A stretch of 34,865 nt of DNA from a virus: the IMG/VR virus record IMGVR_UViG_3300034375_011295. One strand, 5' to 3'. Of this stretch, positions 3,394 through 34,865 are shown piece after piece; the first letter of the stretch is position 1; every line of letters begins with the position of its first letter. The notes beneath the pieces were generated by a model that saw only the letters and a list, made by a program, of their open reading frames with translations, was not told the DNA's origin and made no database searches. Both the position numbers and the translations under genes were made by a program.

Positions 3394-6036
3394 TTAATAC
3401 TCCAGTAATTTTCTTAATTTTTGAGAAAAAGTTAATTTCTTACTTGTCGCCACTTGTTTAGCACTTTTCAGATGATTAACAACTTTATTGCTCAATCCAC
3501 TTGTTTTTTTATAAGTTCTTTTTGGCTTATTTGCAAGTGTAAGTTGTACATTTTTGCTTTTATTTGAGAAGTAACCACTCATTTTCAGTAGTTCTCTCAT
3601 TTTTGCATTTGCTTTACTTTTATTTGTAAATTTATAGATTTTAGCTTGAGGATCAGAGTGTTTTCTGTTATAAGCCAACAATCTATTCATAGCAGTTTTT
3701 AAAAATGAAGTTGATCCATTGTTGAATTTTGATCCAGCTACATAATAATATTTACAATCTTTTCCAGTAAATCCGTGTATTTCATTCCCTTTCTTAATCA
3801 CATCACTATCAACAACACGAGTGCTTAATTTTATTCTATCAGATAAACCTCTATTTGCAACCAAAGTGCTTAAAATACTTTCTGGAGTAACTTCTTGATC
3901 ATAGCCAAACATCGAATCCCCTTGAGTGCTATTTCTGGCAGATACATAATAACTTTCTAAAATATCTCTAAATTTATTTACACCACTTTTTAATGACAAC
4001 CAAAGCATAGCCACCAAATTATCAGGCATTTCAGCATTTCCGAACATACTTTCTTGATTAAGGAACTCTTTAATTGATACCCCTTGCGTTCTTCTAATAT
4101 TTTCAAACTTGATAACATCTCTCAAATATGGTAACAAATCAAATTCTTTTGACAAAGTTTGGATTTTAGTCAGCACTGGAATAGCTTTTAAAATTCTATT
4201 TGTATAATCTTTAGCACCCTCGATCAATTCTTCGGATGGAAGAATTTTTGCAAGTAATAAATTTTCTAAATTATTTTTTCCAGCAGGAGTAAGATTTCCG
4301 TCATTTGTCAGCCAAATTGGACTATTTGAACTTGTAATAATTTCATTTTTTCGCAAGACATCAATCACAACTTTTTGATTTTTGTCTTTTGAAACAACTT
4401 GATTGAAAGTTTCATCATCCTCGCCCTCAAATATTTGAGCAATTTCCTCAAATCCTTTTTGGCTTAATGATTTTGCTAAACTTAAACTATTTGTATTTTG
4501 ATCTTTGGCTCTGGATAAAGTTTCATTTAAAATTCTGGAATACCAACTGCATCTATCCATTTCAGCATTAATCATTCTCACTAAAACTGGATATTTCATT
4601 TTTTTAAATTCGGTATTATCTGAAAATCCAAACATCTGGAGTCGTGGCTTTAAATAGTCAATATATTTGTCATAATTGTTCAAGAGCTTAACTCTTTTTA
4701 ACATCATTATACGACCATTACCACCTAAAACAACATTATCTTTTGAAACAACGGACGGACCAGTCATTGCTTCTGGACTATCATTTATAAAATGATATGG
4801 CTTGAAATTAGATGAATAACTTAATACCTTATCTTTTTCAGCCGATTTTTTGTAATCTCTTTCTTGACATTGTTTTGGATATTTAGGATTCCAGTCAAAA
4901 GTCCTTTCGTCGTGTGATTGGATCACATCATCAAGTTCCATAATTACATATTTACTTGGAATTTCTTGTGATGGAGTTTCCAGAATACCACTATTTCCAA
5001 CAATTACTTTCCCTTTCGGAGCAGATTTTTTTACTACTTTTTTTGGCTCTTGGTATTCAGCACTTTGCACCATTTCAATAAAATTATCAACTGGCAATCC
5101 ACCATCTTTGACAATATTTAATATTTTCAATGCACCAGATTTTAAAGTTTTAAATAAACTTAAATTTCTATTCTTTTTTGAATAGGCATAAGTAATTCCC
5201 TCTCTAAATGGTCCATTTGGATTATTCAAACCTCCAAATGCTAAATTACAAGACAGAACATTCTTATTATCTTGGCACAATCTATTTGCCATCGTCACAG
5301 AATATTCTAAAATTTTAAATTCTTTTGGTAGTTTGTCCGATCCATAACCTTTGGATGCTTTTTCATATTCAGAAAATGTAATTATCCCACTAACATCAAT
5401 TTTTCTTTCTTTTTCTTCACTTGCTTTTTTCTCCACTTTCTTTGGCTCTGGTGATGGCTTACGAATTTTAAGAATATATGTATTATAAAAATCTTCGTAA
5501 TTAAAATTTGAACGTACCCCAAAAGGATATTCATACTCCAATTCTTTAGCCACTTTAATAGCATCTTTCAAGTTTTTAAATTTAATGTTATGGCTTGGAA
5601 TAGTTTGATTATATTCTGTAATATTCAAAACATATTGACCATTCCCATAAGTGTCCTCATTCACTCTATATTTTTTACTTTCAAAATAAACATTACTCCC
5701 AGTGCCTAACTTTCTAATAGGTTTTATATTTGTAGATCTTTCTTTTCCCCCACTTGCTTTTTTTTCGACTTTTTTTGGCTCTGGAGCAGTCTTTTCTTTT
5801 TTTAGACTTGCAGGACGTTTTACCCTCGAAACTCTTTTTGTAGGACTTTTCTGTGCGTCGTTTTTTTGAGGAGTGGCAGATTTTTTGTCAAAATCAGCAA
5901 ATAAACGAGAAATATCCACTTCCAAGTCTTTGGCAATGGATAAAATCTCATTTTTTATTTCTTTAGCTTCATTTTCCGAAAGTTTATGAAGTTTTTTGTT
6001 GTAATCATTTACTAATTCTTCTAAAAAATCCACCAT
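3394..6036 (-). CDS. Large multidomain (polyvalent-type) protein with a ParB-superfamily (DdrB-ParB-like) core (880 aa)
   Basis: aa ~362-450 read VIMELDDVIQSHD..NPKYPKQCQERDYKKSAEKDKV...GPSVVSKDNVVLGGNGRIMML. This fits the xSHD / QxRD / GNGR pattern of ParB-fold domains in phage and plasmid polyvalent proteins. Lys-rich linkers PEPKKVEKKAS occur twice and QEPKKVVKKSAP once. The C-terminus carries KKTSGLS. Confidence 0.5.
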   Translation of the reverse strand: MVDFLEELVNDYNKKLHKLSENEAKEIKNEILSIAKDLEVDISRLFADFDKKSATPQKNDAQKSPTKRVSRVKRPASLKKEKTAPEPKKVEKKASGGKERSTNIKPIRKLGTGSNVYFESKKYRVNEDTYGNGQYVLNITEYNQTIPSHNIKFKNLKDAIKVAKELEYEYPFGVRSNFNYEDFYNTYILKIRKPSPEPKKVEKKASEEKERKIDVSGIITFSEYEKASKGYGSDKLPKEFKILEYSVTMANRLCQDNKNVLSCNLAFGGLNNPNGPFREGITYAYSKKNRNLSLFKTLKSGALKILNIVKDGGLPVDNFIEMVQSAEYQEPKKVVKKSAPKGKVIVGNSGILETPSQEIPSKYVIMELDDVIQSHDERTFDWNPKYPKQCQERDYKKSAEKDKVLSYSSNFKPYHFINDSPEAMTGPSVVSKDNVVLGGNGRIMMLKRVKLLNNYDKYIDYLKPRLQMFGFSDNTEFKKMKYPVLVRMINAEMDRCSWYSRILNETLSRAKDQNTNSLSLAKSLSQKGFEEIAQIFEGEDDETFNQVVSKDKNQKVVIDVLRKNEIITSSNSPIWLTNDGNLTPAGKNNLENLLLAKILPSEELIEGAKDYTNRILKAIPVLTKIQTLSKEFDLLPYLRDVIKFENIRRTQGVSIKEFLNQESMFGNAEMPDNLVAMLWLSLKSGVNKFRDILESYYVSARNSTQGDSMFGYDQEVTPESILSTLVANRGLSDRIKLSTRVVDSDVIKKGNEIHGFTGKDCKYYYVAGSKFNNGSTSFLKTAMNRLLAYNRKHSDPQAKIYKFTNKSKANAKMRELLKMSGYFSNKSKNVQLTLANKPKRTYKKTSGLSNKVVNHLKSAKQVATSKKLTFSQKLRKLLEY

Positions 6037-12410: not shown

Positions 12411-12718
12411 TTTAAAAATCCTTGTTTATTCAAATAATTTTCAATGTAAGTAAGTCCTATTGATCTTAAAGTTTTATTTACCTTGCTAAAGTCTAATTTT
12501 GAAATTAAATTAGCAAGTGGCTGGAACTTTGCATTAATATTAAAATCCATATATACTGGAGTCGTAGTCCTAATTGGAACATAATTAACTGCAATATTTT
12601 TTAAATCTTTCACTTTTGCCAGAACATCATCTTTTGTTCCTGCGAATTGTAATCTTTTTCCAAGATTAATCAATTCTTTCGGTGTGTCTTTTGCTATTTT
12701 AACCATTTGGAACTCCAT
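12407..12718 (-). CDS. Hypothetical protein (103 aa; may start at the internal Met5)
   Basis: ORF overlaps both neighbours by a few nt, consistent with translational coupling. Confidence 0.65.
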   Translation of the reverse strand: MEFQMVKIAKDTPKELINLGKRLQFAGTKDDVLAKVKDLKNIAVNYVPIRTTTPVYMDFNINAKFQPLANLISKLDFSKVNKTLRSIGLTYIENYLNKQGFLK

Positions 12719-13505
12719 CTAAATCTGAATCTGGAATTGTTTGATTTGGAGCTTGTTGTGCTTGCACCATTTGAGGAGCAGGGGATTGACCAGCATTTTT
12801 GAAACTCGCCCAAATTGACGGAAGTTGTGGCAGTACTTGAGCCACCAAACTAAACATTGCTTGTTGTTGTTGTGGAATTACCTCATCAGACAAGCCCTTA
12901 TTTTCTTTTTCAAGTTCTTTCACTCTTTGTGATAAAGAATTGATCTTTTCATTTAGATTTTCTTTTTCCCAATTCCATCTTTTTTCAGATTCTTCTCTGG
13001 AAACTCTATTTAAAATATTGTCTGAAAGTCCAGATTCACTTTCTTTTTTTAACCTTGCTATTTCATCATTAAGTCTTCTTATTTCATCATTTGCTGAATG
13101 TAATTGATTTTCTAATACTTCTATTACTTTATTATTTTGAGCTTCCATTTCTCTTTTCATTGCACGATCTGAATAAAAATTTTGTGCTGGATTTGGAGCA
13201 AAAAAATCATAATTTGGATTGTCTGCCAAACTATCAACACTATCTTCATTTCTTGCTGGTACAGTCATTTCAGTTACATAAACATCCACACCGTCTTCGA
13301 TTTTGCACAAATGAAGTAAAGTTCCTTGTTTAAAATTGTGATCTCCATTCATTACCCAATCTTCAAAAGTACCATCACATTGCGAAATTAATATTTCAGA
13401 TGGAAGTGAAGTTGGACGACCTTTCCAGACTATTGCATCATTCTGGCTTTCTTTTGGATCAACTTTTCCAATTTTGTAATTTTTATTTTTTTCAAATTTT
13501 GTCAT
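12699..13505 (-). CDS. Coiled-coil, scaffold-like protein (268 aa)
   Basis: Central heptad-rich region (EIRRLNDEIARLKKE ... INSLSQRVKELEKENK). Gln/Pro-rich tail. Two GLSD sites. Strong TTTAAAGAGAGGAA leader. Lies next to the capsid candidates. Confidence 0.45.
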   Translation of the reverse strand: MTKFEKNKNYKIGKVDPKESQNDAIVWKGRPTSLPSEILISQCDGTFEDWVMNGDHNFKQGTLLHLCKIEDGVDVYVTEMTVPARNEDSVDSLADNPNYDFFAPNPAQNFYSDRAMKREMEAQNNKVIEVLENQLHSANDEIRRLNDEIARLKKESESGLSDNILNRVSREESEKRWNWEKENLNEKINSLSQRVKELEKENKGLSDEVIPQQQQAMFSLVAQVLPQLPSIWASFKNAGQSPAPQMVQAQQAPNQTIPDSDLDGVPNG

Positions 13506-20263: not shown

Positions 20264-21802
20264 TTAAAAAAGTTTATTTTTCTTTGCATACCATATACCT
20301 CCACCAACTGCTACTGCAATCCCCAGAGGCATCATTTTTCTTAAATTTGTGTCATAATCCCAATTATCTTGATAACCAATTACATCAGCACCAACTGACT
20401 TCTTAATTTCAATTGCAAATTTTTCTCTTTTGCCAATTGGAATTGTGTCTGGAAGAACAAAAGGAATTTTGTTACTGGCATATTTAGATGCTTGTTTTAT
20501 CAAAGCACTTAAAGTCATTTCATCAAAATTATCTTCTGGACCAACATAGCCAAATGATGAAGCTATTAATCCCACTAAATTATTTTGTGTCAATCTATTG
20601 TCAGATATTTCACGTTTTATTATTTCTGGAATTAGTTTATCTACTCCAATCACACCTTGCAAAATTGTTCCAGCACTTCCAGACTGAAATAAATTATTTA
20701 TTGCAGGAACTTGATAAACCGAAATGCTTTCTGAAAGTTCTGAAAGTAAATTTTCTCCTCCAGATCGCCCAGTCATTTTTCTTTTTAAGATTTCATTTGT
20801 ATAAGAACTAACCACACCAGAAAAAGTCTTATTTGCATTTGCTAAAGATCCATTGATTTTTCTTAAATCAACTACTTGATCAAATTTTCCAGAAGCAATA
20901 TTATTTAAGAACTTTATAGTTTCTGCTTTATCTACTCCAGTAATTGATGAAAATTGAGTTACTAAATTTCCAGCAAAATTTTGTTGGATCGACTCATAAC
21001 CAGTTTTTGCTTGATCAATATATTTTCCAAAAATCCAACCATCTTCCAACTTTCCAGTAATATCGTTTTTAATTTTACCCCACTTTGCAGTAGCTCCTTT
21101 CGTCCATTCAGGCAACAATATTTCAGAAGTCATTGCCAAAGATTTAAAAATATTATTGTTTTGAGCAGTTTTGTCGCCTTTTGACCAAATTTTTATTAAC
21201 GTTCCAGCTTGTTCGATAAACTTTGGATCAATATTCAAAGGTCCTGCAAAGGAACTCGCAATTGCTAAAGCATAGCCAAGCACATCTGTTAATGAATTTG
21301 CTTCCGAATAACTCCAATAAATAATTATTGGATTGTCGTGCTTTTCTCTATTATTTTCAATTTTTTCAAGAACTTCAAAGAAATTTTTATTATAATCTGG
21401 CTTTCTAAATTTCCAATTTCCAAAATATCCACCACTCACAACACCTTTATTAATCAATTTTGCCCTGTCTGTCCTTGTATTGTTGTTATTTCCCCAAATA
21501 TTTCTAATTGTTTGACCAACTTGAATAATAGGGCAGTTTGACCATAATTCTTTTGAGCTATTAAAACCTAACAATTCTCCTTTAAGCAAAGTTTTTGATT
21601 GTTTAGTATTTTCATCAGCAACTACAATTAAATTTCCAACTTTATCTTTAAACATTCCAAAACCAGTTGGGCTTTTTAAATTATCCGTTTTTTCATTATA
21701 AAAAAGAGCCGATCCATTTATCAAAGCCGAAGAATTTGCAGTCGTTATATCATAACAAACGTGCAATTCTTTTAAAGCCGACCAATGTTGAATGTTTTTC
21801 AT
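20264..21802 (-). CDS. Large tail-anchored protein, unknown function (512 aa)
   Basis: No P-loop or other recognisable motif. C-terminal helix MMPLGIAVAVGGGIWYA followed by KKNKLF. Confidence 0.75.
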   Translation of the reverse strand: MKNIQHWSALKELHVCYDITTANSSALINGSALFYNEKTDNLKSPTGFGMFKDKVGNLIVVADENTKQSKTLLKGELLGFNSSKELWSNCPIIQVGQTIRNIWGNNNNTRTDRAKLINKGVVSGGYFGNWKFRKPDYNKNFFEVLEKIENNREKHDNPIIIYWSYSEANSLTDVLGYALAIASSFAGPLNIDPKFIEQAGTLIKIWSKGDKTAQNNNIFKSLAMTSEILLPEWTKGATAKWGKIKNDITGKLEDGWIFGKYIDQAKTGYESIQQNFAGNLVTQFSSITGVDKAETIKFLNNIASGKFDQVVDLRKINGSLANANKTFSGVVSSYTNEILKRKMTGRSGGENLLSELSESISVYQVPAINNLFQSGSAGTILQGVIGVDKLIPEIIKREISDNRLTQNNLVGLIASSFGYVGPEDNFDEMTLSALIKQASKYASNKIPFVLPDTIPIGKREKFAIEIKKSVGADVIGYQDNWDYDTNLRKMMPLGIAVAVGGGIWYAKKNKLF

Positions 21803-21805
21803 TTT

Positions 21806-22639
21806 TTAATACCTTTCAGGGTACTTGTAAATTTTTTCTCCAGCAGTAATTGTTGAATATAATTGCTTATGACCTCGTCCATTTACTGCATCTGGCAAAG
21901 TGATTTTATCTTTTTCAAGAACTTCATCAACAACAACATTTTCATTTGGATTTTTTACACCTAATTGGTGCAATAATCTTTGAGTTACATCAATATTATT
22001 ACTTCCAGACTGACTATTTGAGTGTTGATTTCCAATATTTATATTAATTTCAGGCATACCTTTCCTTAATCCAGAGCATCTATTACAAGACCCTTTACAA
22101 GCACAAGGTTTATCTGACAAAGTTTTTAATTCTAATTCTGGCATTGGCGACCTATATAATTTTGTTCTATTTGCTTTTACTGTGTGATTAAAACCAGCAC
22201 TTTTCATTGTCGGATCTAAAACAATCCATCTACTTCCATCTTTTGCTTCCAAAACAATATGAGTAAATCTCAAATCTTTTGGATCTTTCCAAGAAATCAC
22301 TTTATATCTTGTCGTAATTCCATTAATTCTTAATAATGAAGAAATAAGTAAAACCATACTTTCACAATCTTCACAAGTTTTCTGCCCTGATATTAAGAGC
22401 CAAGGCGACGTAATATGCTCCATTCCTTTAGGATCATCACAAAAACTTACAGACTTCCAAACATAATCAAAGCACTTTTTAATTGTATCAGATCTTGAAC
22501 TGCCTCTCAACTCGTTAGCTTTTTTTTTTACTATTGGATTGTTTGTAGCCACTTGATCAATAGAATATATTTCTCTAATTATTTGATCAATCAATCCATC
22601 GTGATTTTTAGCAGTTATATTTCTTGATTTTGACTTCAT
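21806..22639 (-). CDS. Transglutaminase-like (papain-fold) cysteine protease superfamily protein (277 aa)
   Basis: Core KTCEDCESMVLLISSLLRINGITTRYKVISW ... FTHIVLEAKDGSRWIVLDPT matches the Cys / His / Asp order and spacing of transglutaminase-like domains. A Cys cluster (CACKGSCNRCSG) lies in the C-terminal third of the protein (aa ~179-190). Confidence 0.6.
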   Translation of the reverse strand: MKSKSRNITAKNHDGLIDQIIREIYSIDQVATNNPIVKKKANELRGSSRSDTIKKCFDYVWKSVSFCDDPKGMEHITSPWLLISGQKTCEDCESMVLLISSLLRINGITTRYKVISWKDPKDLRFTHIVLEAKDGSRWIVLDPTMKSAGFNHTVKANRTKLYRSPMPELELKTLSDKPCACKGSCNRCSGLRKGMPEININIGNQHSNSQSGSNNIDVTQRLLHQLGVKNPNENVVVDEVLEKDKITLPDAVNGRGHKQLYSTITAGEKIYKYPERY

Positions 22640-24507: not shown

Positions 24508-24542
24508 TTATTTTGATATATTGAAACTTTTTCATAGTTTTG
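24508..24542 (+). promoter_or_regulatory. Early promoter candidate A: TTATTTTG-N19-TAGTTTTG (Bacteroidetes-type -33/-7 layout)
   Basis: TTTG at 24512-24515, a 19-nt spacer containing TGAAACTTTTT, then TAGTTTTG at 24535-24542. Upstream of the first plus-strand gene. Confidence 0.45.
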
Positions 24543-24637: not shown

Positions 24638-24937
24638 ATGGAAAATCAAAACTTTGAGAAAGAAGCATTAAGATATTTAGCCAATCAGGATAGAAAATTT
24701 AAACTAAAAACAAGTGAAATAGTTACTATTGAGGAGGCAAGTCAAATATTAAGGATTGATAAACCTAAAATTATTGATTTGATTAAGTATGGAGTTTTAA
24801 AAGCAGTAAACTCTACCAAAGGAGTTAAAATCTCCAGAAAGTCAATATCCGAATTTGCAGATCAACTATTTCATATTGATTTTCCAAATAATTTTAATGA
24901 TTTAAGAATTACAAACATCTTCAAACCATTAAATTAA
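24638..24937 (+). CDS. Xis/MerR-like helix-turn-helix DNA-binding protein (99 aa)
   Basis: VTIEEASQILRIDKPKIIDLIKYGVLKAV...KISRKSISEF fits the excisionase-family HTH pattern. Confidence 0.55.
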   Translation: MENQNFEKEALRYLANQDRKFKLKTSEIVTIEEASQILRIDKPKIIDLIKYGVLKAVNSTKGVKISRKSISEFADQLFHIDFPNNFNDLRITNIFKPLN

Positions 24938-25071
24938 TGAAAATTAAATATAAAAATATTTTAACATCTGAAATCATTGCAGTTGCAGGACTGAAATTTT
25001 TAGAAAATTATACTAAAATTATAATTGAATTAGAAAAATTATTAATTAACCAACCAGAGAGGAAAAATTAA
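24937..25071 (+). CDS. Small hypothetical protein (44 aa), below the track cutoff
   Basis: Hand translation gives MKIKYKNILTSEIIAVAGLKFLENYTKIIIELEKLLINQPERKN. It is coupled to both neighbours by TAATG overlaps at each end. Confidence 0.5.
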   Translation: MKIKYKNILTSEIIAVAGLKFLENYTKIIIELEKLLINQPERKN

Positions 25072-25322
25072 TGGATAACAACCAAATTCTCCAAACACTT
25101 ATTAATCAAACGATTGGATCTTTTGAACTTTTGCTTTTAGATTACGATTTTAAAGATTACATAAGTCAATATAAAAATTTAATTGTAAAATTAAGACAAG
25201 ATCGACTTGCCAGACCTACCGATAAAAACATAGACTTACAAATAAACCGATTGACAAGATTAATTGACATTTTAGAATATGCTCAAAAATTAAATGTTAA
25301 ACCAAATATTAGCTTAAATTAA
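25071..25322 (+). CDS. Hypothetical protein (83 aa)
   Basis: ORF with a GAGAGG RBS. Confidence 0.7.
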   Translation: MDNNQILQTLINQTIGSFELLLLDYDFKDYISQYKNLIVKLRQDRLARPTDKNIDLQINRLTRLIDILEYAQKLNVKPNISLN

Positions 25323-25324
25323 AT

Positions 25325-25546
25325 ATGGATAAAATTAAAAGATTTAAGATAGGCACAATTGTATCAGTTACAATTGAATGTAGGGAAGTTGATAATAACA
25401 ATTTAGTAAAACCTTATAGATATATATTAAAGGGCTATAAAAAAGTTTATAATGACTTATGTGCTAAAATTACTATGCTTGACTTTAATGATGTTAAAAC
25501 TAAATTTAATTATTTAGTTCCTGCTGACAAAATATATAAAATTTAA
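25325..25546 (+). CDS. Hypothetical protein (73 aa)
   Basis: ORF in the early operon. Confidence 0.65.
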   Translation: MDKIKRFKIGTIVSVTIECREVDNNNLVKPYRYILKGYKKVYNDLCAKITMLDFNDVKTKFNYLVPADKIYKI

Positions 25547-25568
25547 TCAAAATATTCTGGGGGATCAC

Positions 25569-26465
25569 GTGGCTTATAATACTGCTGGACTTCTTTACTT
25601 TCCATTATCAATGAAATTTTGGAAAGACTCAAAAATAATTACTCTCCGAAAAGAAATTAATGAGATAGCTCCACAAAGATATTTACAGATTTTAACTGAA
25701 ATTTATGATAATGGATATTTTTTAGAATTTACTAAAGAAAATATTTATTCAATTTCTGACACTTACCATATTGAAGTGGATGAAATAAAAAAAATTGTTG
25801 AAAAATGTATTGAAGTTGGACTTTTTAATAAAGAGCTATTTGAAAAATATAATATTCTTACAAGCAAATCTATTCAGAAAATATTTCTTGATGCTGGGAA
25901 ATCCAGAATTAAAATTGAATTGATAAATGAATATTTATTAATAAACTTTGCTGAAATCTATGAGTTTATTACAAGAGATAGGTTAAAAGTATATATTTAT
26001 AGTTTTGATAAAACAAATTGCATTATTCTTTATAAGTCATTAGAAATTAACGTGGATAAGTTGGCAACTATGACTTTTAAAGATTTAATAAACTACACTT
26101 CGTCCGACAAATTTAACACTCTGCCCGACATAGATGGCGAAAAGTCGGGCATTTTTGATAAAGGAAAGGAAAGGAAAGGAAAGGAAAGTAAAGGAAAGGA
26201 GAGTGTGGCGAAAAATCTTTCGCCTGACACACTCACTCACAATTCTTTTTTTCAAAGATGGATCAAAGAAAAGTCAATTCATTTAAAAAAATTAACTCCA
26301 ATATCAGAAGAACAAGAAAATATACTTTTAAATAGAGTGGATAAATATACTTTAGTCCAGATTGCCTCTGAATTAGATGATAAAATGGAAACTGGATATA
26401 AAGTGGGTAAACTTTACACAGTCTTAAATAAATTTACAGATCAATATTTAAAGGGTAGAAAATGA
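25569..26465 (+). CDS. Replisome organiser / replication initiator-like protein (DUF4373, Lin1244-like N-terminal domain) (298 aa, GTG start)
   Basis: N-terminus LLYFPLSMKFWKDSKIITLRKEINEIAPQRYLQILTEIYDNGYFLEF matches the DUF4373 pattern. GGGGGA RBS. Lies directly upstream of, and overlaps, the DnaB gene. Confidence 0.6.
   Translation: MAYNTAGLLYFPLSMKFWKDSKIITLRKEINEIAPQRYLQILTEIYDNGYFLEFTKENIYSISDTYHIEVDEIKKIVEKCIEVGLFNKELFEKYNILTSKSIQKIFLDAGKSRIKIELINEYLLINFAEIYEFITRDRLKVYIYSFDKTNCIILYKSLEINVDKLATMTFKDLINYTSSDKFNTLPDIDGEKSGIFDKGKERKGKESKGKESVAKNLSPDTLTHNSFFQRWIKEKSIHLKKLTPISEEQENILLNRVDKYTLVQIASELDDKMETGYKVGKLYTVLNKFTDQYLKGRK
26160..26203 (+). repeat. (AAAGG)n pentanucleotide tract inside the organiser gene, encoding KGKERKGKESKGKES
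   Basis: aaagg x5, aaagt, aaagg x2, agag, read directly. Flanked by GC-rich inverted repeats at 26122-26151 and 26207-26224. Confidence 0.85.
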
Positions 26466-32472: not shown

Positions 32473-32782
32473 GTCAATAAATAATCGTGAATTTAGAGCA
32501 AAATTAAATTCACTAAAAAATGTCCCTTATGCTGTAACAAGCCATAGCAAAATATTAGGTTTTTATATTCCGATAGACTATTTAATAGAAGATTATCCAT
32601 CAATGCTTAAAACGATTGGGAACAATGCAATGTTATTTGAACTAAAAAAACATTTTCCACTTTTAAAAGTAAAATTTACAGATTGCTTTCAAAGATCAAT
32701 TGCTGAAAAAATATTAAAAGAATTAGAAGCTAAATATGGAAACACGCTACCAAAAGAAGAATTAATAAAAGCCCTCGAATGA
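32462..32782 (+). CDS. Hypothetical protein, N-terminus Phd/YefM-antitoxin-like (106 aa)
   Basis: IKSINNREFRAKLNSLKNVPYAVTSHSKILGFYIP resembles the Phd/YefM N-terminal strand-helix-strand pattern. Weak. Confidence 0.3.
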   Translation: MEIKSINNREFRAKLNSLKNVPYAVTSHSKILGFYIPIDYLIEDYPSMLKTIGNNAMLFELKKHFPLLKVKFTDCFQRSIAEKILKELEAKYGNTLPKEELIKALE

Positions 32783-32797
32783 GGGCTTTTATTTATA
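32767..32797. terminator. Bidirectional rho-independent terminator
   Basis: aaaagccctc (32767-32776), loop gaat, gagggctttt (32781-32790), T-rich tail. Overlaps the stops of the convergent genes 32462-32782 (+) and 32789-32956 (-). Confidence 0.85.
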
Positions 32798-32956
32798 ATC
32801 AGTTTTATAAAATCCAAATCCTTTGAAGACTGGATTGGAGCAAGAAACAATCGGTAACATTTTTCCACCACACTCACAATCAAAAATTTGCTTTTTCTTT
32901 TGCAAAATTTCCTCTTTTCTTGAGCATTTTTTACATTTATATTCAAATATTGGCAT
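32789..32956 (-). CDS. FmdB-family zinc-ribbon protein (55 aa), absent from the ORF track
   Basis: Hand translation gives MPIFEYKCKKCSRKEEILQKKKQIFDCECGGKMLPIVSCSNPVFKGFGFYKTDYK. This matches the FmdB/CxxC_CxxC_SSSS pattern: MPIYEY.C..C, a second CxC-GG pair, then FKGSGFY.TDY. It starts 3 nt after the upstream stop. Confidence 0.75.
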   Translation of the reverse strand: MPIFEYKCKKCSRKEEILQKKKQIFDCECGGKMLPIVSCSNPVFKGFGFYKTDYK

Positions 32957-32958
32957 AA

Positions 32959-33177
32959 TCAGTCCTCAACATTATCTTGAAAATATTTTCTGCGAATATT
33001 CCAAACTTCTTCATCAATACTATTTTCTGGATATGGTAGGACTGCATCAGCATCGCCACAATCAACATATCCATTAAAATACCCTAATTCAAAAAAAACT
33101 TTCTCTCGCCTCGTAATTGGCTCTAATTTTGAGTATTTTAAAAATTTATTATCTTCAAAGATATGATCTAAATTCAT
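32959..33177 (-). CDS. Hypothetical protein (72 aa from the ATG at 33177)
   Basis: The track ORF extends to 33222 and overlaps the J-domain gene. The ATG at 33177 lies 1 nt after that gene's stop (MNLDHIFEDNKF...). Confidence 0.6.
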   Translation of the reverse strand: MNLDHIFEDNKFLKYSKLEPITRREKVFFELGYFNGYVDCGDADAVLPYPENSIDEEVWNIRRKYFQDNVED

Positions 33178-33178
33178 T

Positions 33179-33520
33179 TCATTTCCAAATATTTTTATTA
33201 ATAATGTTAGATAAAATTCCACCAGCTAAATTTATTGTTTCTGTAACAATTTTTTTACCAGATTCTTTCATTTCAGGCGACATATTTTTTTTAATTTCAG
33301 TCCAATCAAGTGGCTTTTTTAGTGATTTTTCAAAAGATAACTTCTCTTTTTCGGCTAATTCTTTATATTTTTTATCTTTCTCAATTTCAATTTCTTTAAA
33401 AATTTCCTCTTGGATTTCTTTCTCAACTGGATCAGAAAATTTATCTGGATGATTAGCGACTTTTAATTCTTTTGCCAATTTTTCCACTTCTTCGGCAGTT
33501 TTGCAATTATCAAAATACAC
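33179..33520 (-). CDS. J-domain (DnaJ-like co-chaperone) protein (113 aa, GTG start)
   Basis: YFDNCKTAEEVEKLAKELKVANHPDKF fits J-domain helix II plus the invariant HPD tripeptide, followed by a helical charged region. AGGAGGAGG RBS lies 6 nt upstream of the GTG. Confidence 0.6.
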   Translation of the reverse strand: MYFDNCKTAEEVEKLAKELKVANHPDKFSDPVEKEIQEEIFKEIEIEKDKKYKELAEKEKLSFEKSLKKPLDWTEIKKNMSPEMKESGKKIVTETINLAGGILSNIINKNIWK

Positions 33521-34190
33521 TTACAACCTCCTCCTTATAAGTATCAAAAGCTAATCTGGGCTTATCTCCCAAATATCTATTTTTTTTGAATGAAGCTACC
33601 GATCGAGTACCATCATTTGCTAACCAAACAACAATATCTGGATTATGCTCCCACATTGTCGGACCTTGCATTTTCCCTTTTTTAGACTTGGTATAGTGTA
33701 AAACCACAATAAAGCTCTCTGGACGTGATTGAATGTAATCCCACATTTCTTTATGTTTATTTGTGGAAGCACCAGCTATCATTGAAACTGAATCAATTAC
33801 AACATATTTATAATTGCCTTGTTCCAAAATTTTAGTTAATTCAGAATAAAAATCAGCACCAACATCATCAATAATATCAATATACTGCAAACTAACTGGA
33901 GATAATCTCATTGTACGACATTTTTGTTGAATAGTCTTGCCACGTCGGAGTGGCTCTTCAATATTCAGATATAAACATCTATCTCCTTGCTTATTTCTGG
34001 AATTTTTGCCACAAAGTCTTGACATAAACCTCAATAAAAACGAGGATTTTCCAGCAAATGCTTCTCCAGAAACAGACATTACAAATGGATCATCATAAGG
34101 CAACATAAACAACCATTTCCTATACCTATGATCCATAGGCGTAGGAATTGATTTATCTTTTATAACTTTATTTAGTTGTTGTGTTTGCAT
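33510..34190 (-). CDS. RecA/KaiC/DnaB-C-terminal-like P-loop ATPase (Sak4/AAA_25-like) (226 aa)
   Basis: Walker A SGEAFAGKSSF. Walker B YKYVVIDSV. IVVLHYTK. A C-terminal KKNRYLG typical of RecA-superfamily members. Confidence 0.6.
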   Translation of the reverse strand: MQTQQLNKVIKDKSIPTPMDHRYRKWLFMLPYDDPFVMSVSGEAFAGKSSFLLRFMSRLCGKNSRNKQGDRCLYLNIEEPLRRGKTIQQKCRTMRLSPVSLQYIDIIDDVGADFYSELTKILEQGNYKYVVIDSVSMIAGASTNKHKEMWDYIQSRPESFIVVLHYTKSKKGKMQGPTMWEHNPDIVVWLANDGTRSVASFKKNRYLGDKPRLAFDTYKEEVVSVF

Positions 34191-34233
34191 AGTTAAGCCA
34201 AAAATACTAAAAAAATATCAGTAATACAAAATA

Positions 34234-34269
34234 TTATTTTGTTTTTATAAAAAAAATTTCATAGCTTTG
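34234..34269 (+). promoter_or_regulatory. Promoter candidate D: TTATTTTG-N20-TAGCTTTG, a paralogue of promoter A
   Basis: TTTG at 34238-34241 and TAGCTTTG at 34262-34269. TTCATAGCTTTGTAGTAA closely matches TTCATAGTTTTGCAGTAA of promoter A. Confidence 0.45.
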
Positions 34270-34448: not shown

Positions 34449-34463
34449 AAGAGTATTAACTAT

Positions 34464-34497
34464 GTAATCATTTTTAAAAAGAGAGGAAAACAAAATG
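34464..34497 (+). promoter_or_regulatory. Second copy of the 34-nt leader (see 101-134)
   Basis: Identical 34-mer ending in the ATG of 34495-34824. Confidence 0.7.
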
Positions 34498-34824
34498 CAA
34501 AACACATATTATGTAATAATCAATCCCACCACACAAAAAAGATTAGCAAGTTATTATTTCGGTGCTTTTTGTGCTGGAGTTAAAGAAGTTTTTAGAATGA
34601 GAGATGATGAGTGGTTAGTGTTTAGGACTTATGAAGAAGCAATTTTGAAAATTGAAAGATTTAATAAAGATGTAGATAAGTGGCTAAATGAAAATATAAT
34701 GATAAGGCAATTACCAGACTGGGAAGCAGTTGGAAAAGCAGATGAATTTATAAAAGAAAGTAAAAATACTCATAAAAACTTAAAAAATTATATTGCCAGA
34801 TTGAAAATAGAAGAAGTTATTTAA
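34495..34824 (+). CDS. Hypothetical protein (109 aa)
   Basis: ORF with a GAGAGG RBS. Its last 86 nt fall in the terminal overlap. Confidence 0.8.
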   Translation: MQNTYYVIINPTTQKRLASYYFGAFCAGVKEVFRMRDDEWLVFRTYEEAILKIERFNKDVDKWLNENIMIRQLPDWEAVGKADEFIKESKNTHKNLKNYIARLKIEEVI

Positions 34825-34865
34825 TTAAAAAAAATATTGTAATCATTTTTAAAAAGAGAGGAAAA
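34739..34865. repeat. Terminal overlap identical to 1-127
   Basis: See feature 1-127. Confidence 0.95.

Follow-up and report, generated by a model that had tools for sequence, protein, structure and literature searches.

The question raised by this locus is what a small RecA-like ATPase and a J-domain protein, encoded side by side in a phage, do in the viral cycle. The locus is a compact operon of four minus-strand genes at positions 32789-34190 of the virus record IMGVR_UViG_3300034375_011295, a stretch of 34,865 nucleotides (nt) that was analysed as a whole and is called the window below. [quoted passage not shown] We found that the ATPase belongs to the same family as gp40 of SSIP-1 and that its fold is that of the RadA/DnaB clade. 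The reading that we favour, and this only tentatively, is that of a virion or packaging ATPase provided with its own J protein for the recruitment of the host chaperone DnaK.

The first gene of the operon (33510..34190, ATG start) encodes the ATPase of 226 amino acids (aa). It is followed by the gene of the J-domain protein (33179..33520, 113 aa), whose GTG start lies 6 nt after an AGGAGG, by open reading frame 3 (ORF3; 32959..33177), which encodes an acidic protein of 72 aa from an ATG start, an 87-aa version started at GTG being also possible, and by the gene of a 55-aa zinc ribbon of the FmdB family (32789..32956; TIGR02605). The packing of these genes had been described in the initial annotation with coordinates and spacing that proved exact: the ATPase and J genes overlap by 11 nt, the J gene is separated from ORF3 by a single nt, and ORF3 from the zinc ribbon gene by 2 nt. 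The ratio of nonsynonymous to synonymous divergence (dN/dS) was calculated against L005, a relative whose ATPase is 71% identical to that of the window. It amounts to 0.18 for the ATPase, 0.47 for the J gene, 0.24 for ORF3 and 0.15 for the zinc ribbon, and all four are therefore real coding genes under purifying selection. In the window the AGGAGG of the J gene sits inside the ATPase gene, and in L005 the two genes overlap by 4 nt. The J gene is thus translationally coupled to the ATPase gene, and this holds for each of the two lineages sampled, L001-L003 and L004-L006. The gene order is likewise the same throughout L001-L006, its conservation being confined to a narrow clade.

The placement of the ATPase in the RecA/KaiC superfamily, made from the motifs GEAFAGKSS, VVIDSV and KNRYLG, which are all present, was correct and could be refined. 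In Pfam the protein matches AAA_25 (E 4.9e-8), with KaiC and AAA_24 weaker, and in NCBIfam it matches TIGR00416 (sms; E 2.8e-7) in the central domain only (model positions 99-260 of 454; 29.6 bits against an equivalog cut-off of 403 bits). When the profile of the ATPase family was run against the PDB, the sole significant matches were to RadA of S. pneumoniae (5lkm; E 1e-6). The AlphaFold model of the ATPase (predicted local distance difference test, pLDDT, 83; predicted template modelling score, pTM, 0.84) was compared with PDB representatives using VIA-align. RadA (8rxc) obtained a Z score of 20.7, with a root-mean-square deviation (rmsd) of 2.6 Å over 202 residues, and was followed by KaiC (19.0), Twinkle (18.2), the RAD51 paralogues (about 17), DnaB (16) and RepA (15), whereas Sak4 (8rc5) reached 12.2, the FtsK-HerA-type packaging nucleoside triphosphatase B204 of STIV2 11.2 and HerA 10.5. 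The Foldseek ranking was concordant. The ATPase is therefore a RecA-fold protein with a RadA/Sms-like AAA_25 core and belongs to the RadA/DnaB clade.

The catalytic residues are complete: a Walker A motif (G42-x4-G47-K48-S49), the catalytic pair E78-E79, Walker B (D133-S134), H165/K168 and K203-N204-R205. A comparison with the true RadA encoded in L008 shows that the ATPase has the H-x-T-K...G-P...E-H...D box in common with it, and also the KNR of KNRFG, the latter motif being replaced by K203-N204-R205-Y-L-G. RadA also has an N-terminal C4 zinc finger and a C-terminal Lon-like domain, and the ATPase has neither. No Cys motif was found before Walker A, the P-loop being about 40 residues from the N-terminus, and the protein ends 21 residues past the KNR motif, which leaves no Lon-protease-like domain. 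Since both domains are absent, the ATPase is not a RadA orthologue. Assignment to the Sak4/AAA_24 group was not supported either (AAA_24 E 0.0037, 17.6 bits against a cut-off of 27 bits; phrog_124 E 0.032).

The proteome of SSIP-1 (JN880423) was compared with the window by BLAST and hmmsearch. Clear BLAST matches (E<=2e-5) were obtained for two of its proteins, and short, weak ones (E 0.007-0.04) for three more. One of the two, gp34, matches the transglutaminase-like virion protein of the window at 21806-22639 (E 7e-7), and both genomes are of the tailless membrane-phage type with such a protein. A second, gp40 (24775-25737), is 24% identical to the ATPase over 202 aa. Moreover, the ATPase family profile found in the SSIP-1 proteome gp40 only, at 71 bits, which is more than the 53 bits of a bona fide RadA; positions 7-206 of the profile align to residues 6-197 of gp40 and this includes the N-terminus specific to the family. 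Gp40 itself matches AAA_25 of Pfam with an E of 5.3e-11, and across the family including gp40 there are 18 invariant columns, among them Walker A and B, EE, H, K and KxR. Judged by sequence, the ATPase is homologous to gp40 over the full domain, with the catalytic residues, and is a new member of its family. The two proteins differ in that gp40 is 320 aa long, of which about 115 aa form an acidic extension at the C-terminus, and has K-S-R where the ATPase of the window has K-N-R. In addition, the gp40 gene lies inside the structural module of SSIP-1, a genome that has no J protein or FmdB ribbon. In GenBank gp40 is annotated as 'structural protein' (JN880423), and it has been listed in a review as the predicted packaging ATPase of SSIP-1 (PMC4124505). 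Membership of the gp40 family in the RadA/DnaB clade, rather than among the FtsK-HerA ATPases, appears to be undescribed in the searchable literature.

A third SSIP-1-like lineage is represented by L025 (IMGVR_UViG_3300004829_000009), where the ATPase is kept beside virion and lysis genes. Its homologue (356 aa, 4478-5548) has a Gly-rich hydrophobic N-terminal extension that may be a membrane anchor, and its gene comes after holin-like small membrane genes, on the strand of the fibre-like genes. L025 also carries a gp34-like transglutaminase (12710-13201), and candidate small beta-rich capsid proteins were observed in it. In L005 the operon comes directly after the last gene of the virion arm, on the same strand, and at this junction the window differs only by the insertion of two genes on the opposite strand. 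Other ATPases, 53-58% identical to that of the window, exist on 33-kb contigs (P0010, P0011). A distant homologue (34% identity) was observed in L007 at 886-1407, after the gene of a tail-anchored small membrane protein. No match to the operon region or to the ATPase was found among 50,697 GenBank phages (blastn, tblastn), and a scan of genome contigs with the ATPase alignment found no provirus carrying it.

In the initial annotation it was suggested that the ATPase is the only remaining P-loop protein that could serve in packaging. The complete genome has in fact only three Walker-A proteins, namely DnaB, a Zeta/AAA_33 kinase and the operon ATPase, and the searches revealed in it neither a terminase nor a portal nor an FtsK/HerA family. 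The homology with gp40 lends support to this suggestion, whereas the fold, which is nearer to that of RadA and DnaB than to the FtsK-HerA or P9 type, does not. The ATPase resembles P9 of PRD1, B204 of STIV2 and A32 in being a single-domain P-loop ATPase of about 200-230 aa from a tailless membrane-containing virus, and P9 is virion-associated, as gp40 is annotated to be. These proteins appear, however, to belong to a clade of the ASCE (additional strand, catalytic E) ATPases other than that of the operon ATPase; the Z scores of B204 and HerA compare with 15-21 for the RadA, KaiC and DnaB group, and the gene in the window is not adjacent to capsid genes. The FtsK, HerA and A32 families are absent from the Pfam and PHROG output for the ATPase, which has only the generic ASCE fold in common with them. 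A 512-aa ORF (20264-21802) was considered as a cryptic terminase and rejected, as it has no match in Pfam, PHROG, PDB or the ESM Atlas and no Walker A. This virion-arm protein has a C-terminal hydrophobic membrane helix.

J domains recruit and activate Hsp70/DnaK. They have four helices, of which II and III form an antiparallel hairpin with a His-Pro-Asp (HPD) motif in the loop between them, and I and IV lie at its flanks. The presence of such a domain in the 113-aa protein, with its HPD in the sequence NHPDKF, was upheld at the family level. The window protein alone gives no PF00226 match at E<=1, and its best PDB J-domain match has an E of 0.18. Exhaustive profile searching yielded a family of proteins of 106-146 aa, which were aligned as a set of 12 (A3) and as a strict set of the 8 closest (A4). 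The 12-member alignment has diverged to 29% identity, and the only residues invariant in both alignments are F3, L19, H24-P25-D26 and I44. Individual matches to PF00226 were obtained for 8 of the 12 members (best E 9e-6). Against the PDB, the matches of the 12-member profile were practically all J domains, more than 50 in number (best E 8.7e-8), and the strict profile found J domains only, about 30 of them (best E 3.5e-6). AlphaFold predicts a hairpin of two helices, at residues 9-22 and 31-68, around the HPD loop (pLDDT 84-89). With this model, about 35 of the top 40 Foldseek matches were J domains (rmsd 1.0-2.6 Å over 40-54 columns), every E being above 0.6. Genevaux and colleagues are said to have named Y25, K26 and F47 in 2002 as conserved core residues of helices II and III of DnaJ; in the window protein the core residues K17, L19, I40/F41 and I44 are kept, and the equivalents of the conserved Tyr are replaced. 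Since the HPD is invariant in the family and the family profiles match J domains, the domain was accepted as real, and the 113-aa protein is a genuine but divergent type III J-domain protein. The domain covers about residues 1-60 and is followed by a helical tail of low confidence with a conserved terminal I-W-K. A role of this tail as membrane anchor was rejected, the maximum 19-residue Kyte-Doolittle mean being 0.8. Proteins 35-45% identical to the window J protein exist (P0018-P0022), and a provirus scan of genome contigs with the J alignment returned only an unrelated J-domain match in an Eggerthellaceae metagenome-assembled genome.

On the reading that we favour, the ATPase would be the conserved virion-type ATPase of SSIP-1-like phages, placed first in its unit. 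Because every catalytic residue is kept, including the K-N-R finger, it should work as an oligomeric translocase, probably ring-shaped and DNA-dependent, with the finger acting in trans, and would most likely be a motor for genome packaging or genome delivery, as predicted for gp40. The HPD loop of the J protein would dock host DnaK and trigger its ATP hydrolysis, and the short C-terminal tail would select the client, possibly the ATPase itself or the vertex complex that it joins. DnaK may then assemble, load or recycle the ATPase. In RadA the Lon-like domain holds the hexamers together, and DnaK may be used on the ATPase because it has lost this domain. The ORF3 protein and the FmdB ribbon could be co-expressed accessory subunits. 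This reading is supported by the homology with gp40, by the virion and lysis neighbourhood in L025 and L005, by the fact that no other packaging ATPase was detected, by the invariance of the catalytic residues in the family, by the evidence for the J domain, and by the coupling of the J gene.

In phage lambda, DnaJ and DnaK remodel the lambda P-DnaB complex, and the T antigens of polyomaviruses have a J domain of their own. If our reading is true, the Hsp70 of the host would serve a phage in building or running a DNA translocase, and both paradigms would be extended to a new type of virus. To our knowledge, no chaperone-assisted DNA-packaging motor is known so far. The PRD1-adenovirus lineage is defined in part by a common packaging ATPase of the FtsK-HerA type, and SSIP-1 has been an orphan in this lineage since 2012. 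In SSIP-1 and in two uncultured relatives, the sole ATPase that is a candidate for packaging is of the RadA/DnaB clade, which raises the possibility that a different motor was recruited in this branch. The stronger proposal that SSIP-1-like phages recruited a RadA/DnaB-clade ring translocase as their virion packaging motor in place of an FtsK-HerA ATPase, and that in the aquatic clade of the window the assembly or loading of this motor became DnaK-dependent through the coupled J protein, is one that we regard as unlikely.

A number of observations weigh against the packaging reading. The fold family of RadA, DnaB, KaiC, Twinkle and the RAD51 paralogues normally serves recombination and replication, the PRD1-lineage packaging ATPases known so far are of the FtsK-HerA type, and B204, which is of that type, ranks only 45th among the structural matches of the ATPase. 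The packaging role of gp40 is itself a prediction only. Two genes 5' of gp40, ORF38 of SSIP-1 (L024, 23783-24520) shows weak Toprim matches (E 0.004 and 0.019) and therefore hints at a role of the gp40 neighbourhood in replication; if the Toprim similarity is real, ORF38 and gp40 together would resemble a split primase-helicase. The promoter-like element of the operon is nearer to those of the replication arm (24512, 27906) than to the one facing the virion arm. The J protein is absent from SSIP-1 and from L025, and the ATPase homologue of L007 precedes a DNA methyltransferase-like gene and not a J protein gene, so that the J partner is a clade-specific addition. Finally, in the J model residues 1-8 are not helical, which leaves a truncated helix I, helix III extends to residue 68 with no separate helix IV, and the conserved Tyr positions are Ala16 and Lys48 in the clade of the window, distant members having Tyr or Phe.

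Several of these points favour the main rival explanation, that of a recombination or replication helper, in which the ATPase is a core-only helicase or annealing protein of the RadA/Sak4 kind acting on intermediates of the phage DNA, the J protein brings DnaK to remodel the replisome or a recombination complex, much as happens to lambda P-DnaB, and the ribbon binds DNA. We consider it somewhat unlikely. It agrees with the RadA/Sms helicases being the closest characterised relatives, with weak matches to the Sak4 and UvsX PHROGs and to AAA_24, with an operon that runs convergently towards the end of the replication arm, and with the repertoire of the phage, which encodes DnaB and an initiator and in which no helicase loader or recombinase was recognised. 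However, the SSIP-1 homologue is annotated as a structural protein of the virion, and in three lineages the conserved neighbours are virion and lysis genes, not genes for single-stranded DNA-binding proteins, nucleases or replication. Moreover, Sak4 is structurally far more distant than RadA, and both domains that RadA carries besides its core are missing. If the ATPase were such a helper, the module would be only a modest addition to the phage J proteins.

The J protein may also act independently of the ATPase, for host takeover, through stabilisation of sigma-32, counter-defence or general folding, and the adjacency of the two genes would then be incidental; this we hold to be quite improbable. 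The model for such a function is Rki (gene 057w), which acts on DnaK and sigma-32 (PMC3486835); it comes from the T4-like phage RB43 and is the one phage J protein that has been characterised. Like the window protein it is of type III, with an N-terminal J domain that has the HPD and a unique C-terminal part (PMC3486835), and in both proteins helix IV is poorly conserved. Rki is, however, longer, with 237 aa, and is an early protein that uses DnaK to stabilise sigma-32 (PMC3486835). It is not linked to an ATPase gene, and outside the J domain no sequence relationship to the window protein was seen.

Phage J proteins as such are common. The strict profile also matches, at 25-34 bits, phage J proteins of 157-181 aa and fusions of J domains with LPD29 (L009-L023); two of them pass the Pfam DnaJ cut-off, and such Pfam-passing proteins score 30-34 bits with the strict profile. 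They share with the window protein the signature M-x-[YW]-F-x-x-C-K-T-x-E-E followed by the HPD, and differ in their C-terminal domain, which is of the W-x-W...K-K-x-W-Y type or LPD29. In no case was an ATPase of the window family (A2) found within about 5 kb. The occurrence of the same N-terminal signature in many unrelated phage contexts, and its fusion in some of them to a polyvalent-protein domain, are in line with an independent role, as is the mosaic nature of the J gene described below. Nevertheless, the translational coupling to the ATPase gene is found in both sampled lineages, the architecture of 113-116 aa with a C-terminal I-W-K is specific to the J family of the window, and the four genes stand under one promoter-like site and one terminator. 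The pairing of ATPase and J protein, which the initial annotation called not commonly described, is documented only in two close lineages of a narrow clade. The operon-level coupling of a gp40-family ATPase to a J protein appears to be undescribed in the searchable literature. Fusions of J domains that carry this signature to LPD29 and DUF5710 were observed on large phage contigs (L016 4995-7364, L019 4995-7181, L022 7681-8535); these would be J domains delivered within polyvalent proteins.

The last explanation is that the protein is simply helical and charged, with an HPD that arose by chance and no J-domain function. It could appeal to the poor matches of the window protein alone, to the Foldseek E values and to the two replaced Tyr positions, but it is largely refuted and essentially excluded by the few invariant residues of so diverged a family, by profiles whose PDB matches, more than 30, are practically all J domains, and by the Pfam matches of the family members and of related phage proteins. 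As for the grounds of refutation named in the initial annotation, J-domain matches were found and a helix II/III hairpin is predicted, the ATPase was not clearly placed in a family of unrelated role, and the gene order was retained.

The four genes are read as a single, self-contained unit of transcription that closes the virion arm distally. A pattern scan detected on the minus strand a promoter-like element of Bacteroidota layout, TTTG-N20-TATTTTTG, at 34199..34230, which ends 8 nt 5' of the ATPase ATG and would act as a promoter. The window contains 6 sites of the form TTTG-N20-TAnnTTTG against 1.9 expected, and L005 has a near-identical element at 1971-2002, 5' of its own ATPase gene. On the other side, directly 3' of the last stop codon of the operon, we found a strong bidirectional intrinsic terminator (32764..32793), a hairpin AAAAGCCCTC-ATTC-GAGGGCTTTT with a 13-bp stem and a T-run, which is common to the operon and to the convergent plus-strand gene ending at 32782. 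At 34199-34269 two diverging TTTG-N20-TAnnTTTG elements were observed back to back, one on the minus strand (34230-34199) and one on the plus strand (34238-34269), and this pair is kept in L005. The extended box of the minus-strand element, TGA(A/T)A(C/T)TTTTTTAGTA, recurs in two plus-strand elements, those at 24512 and 27906.

The operon has diverged in a mosaic manner. Between the window (32789-34190) and L005 (2038-3446) the synonymous divergence amounts to 1.18 for the ATPase gene and 0.75 for the J gene, and to 0.17-0.20 for the genes of ORF3 and the zinc ribbon. Moreover, J proteins of the L006 type and of the L004/L005 type have identical N-terminal halves, whereas their C-terminal halves have been swapped. 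This points to a recombination breakpoint near codon 68.

The two remaining proteins are of different character. The ORF3 protein (isoelectric point 4.5) has no match in Pfam, NCBIfam or PHROG, and a comparison with the ESM Atlas gave scores below 0.8 and no lead. Its only relatives among 5.8 billion proteins are two clusters with at least 81% identity, and it is an orphan restricted to close relatives. Over its full length the 55-aa protein is a canonical zinc ribbon of the FmdB family, as had been proposed. It matches TIGR02605 with 34.5 bits (cut-off 31.3), residues 1-46 aligning to positions 1-50 of the 52 of the model, and PF09723 (Zn_ribbon_8) with an E of 2.7e-7 and 30.9 bits, below the gathering score of 34.4. 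Its knuckles are C8-x2-C11 and C28-x-C30, the second being C-x-C and not C-x-x-C, and it carries the G-F-Y-x-T-D-Y tail of the FmdB family. The idea of a split RadA, with the ribbon replacing the RadA zinc finger, was rejected, as no RadA zinc-finger family appeared in the Pfam or NCBIfam output.

The two genes inserted between the virion arm and the operon lie on the plus strand at 34495-34824 and 132-731. An identical 36-nt leader precedes both of them, at 34463-34497 and at 34838-34865 continuing to 128-134. It is made up of the 28 nt that precede the assembly junction and of CAAAATG, and contains the ribosome-binding stretch GAGAGGAAAA.

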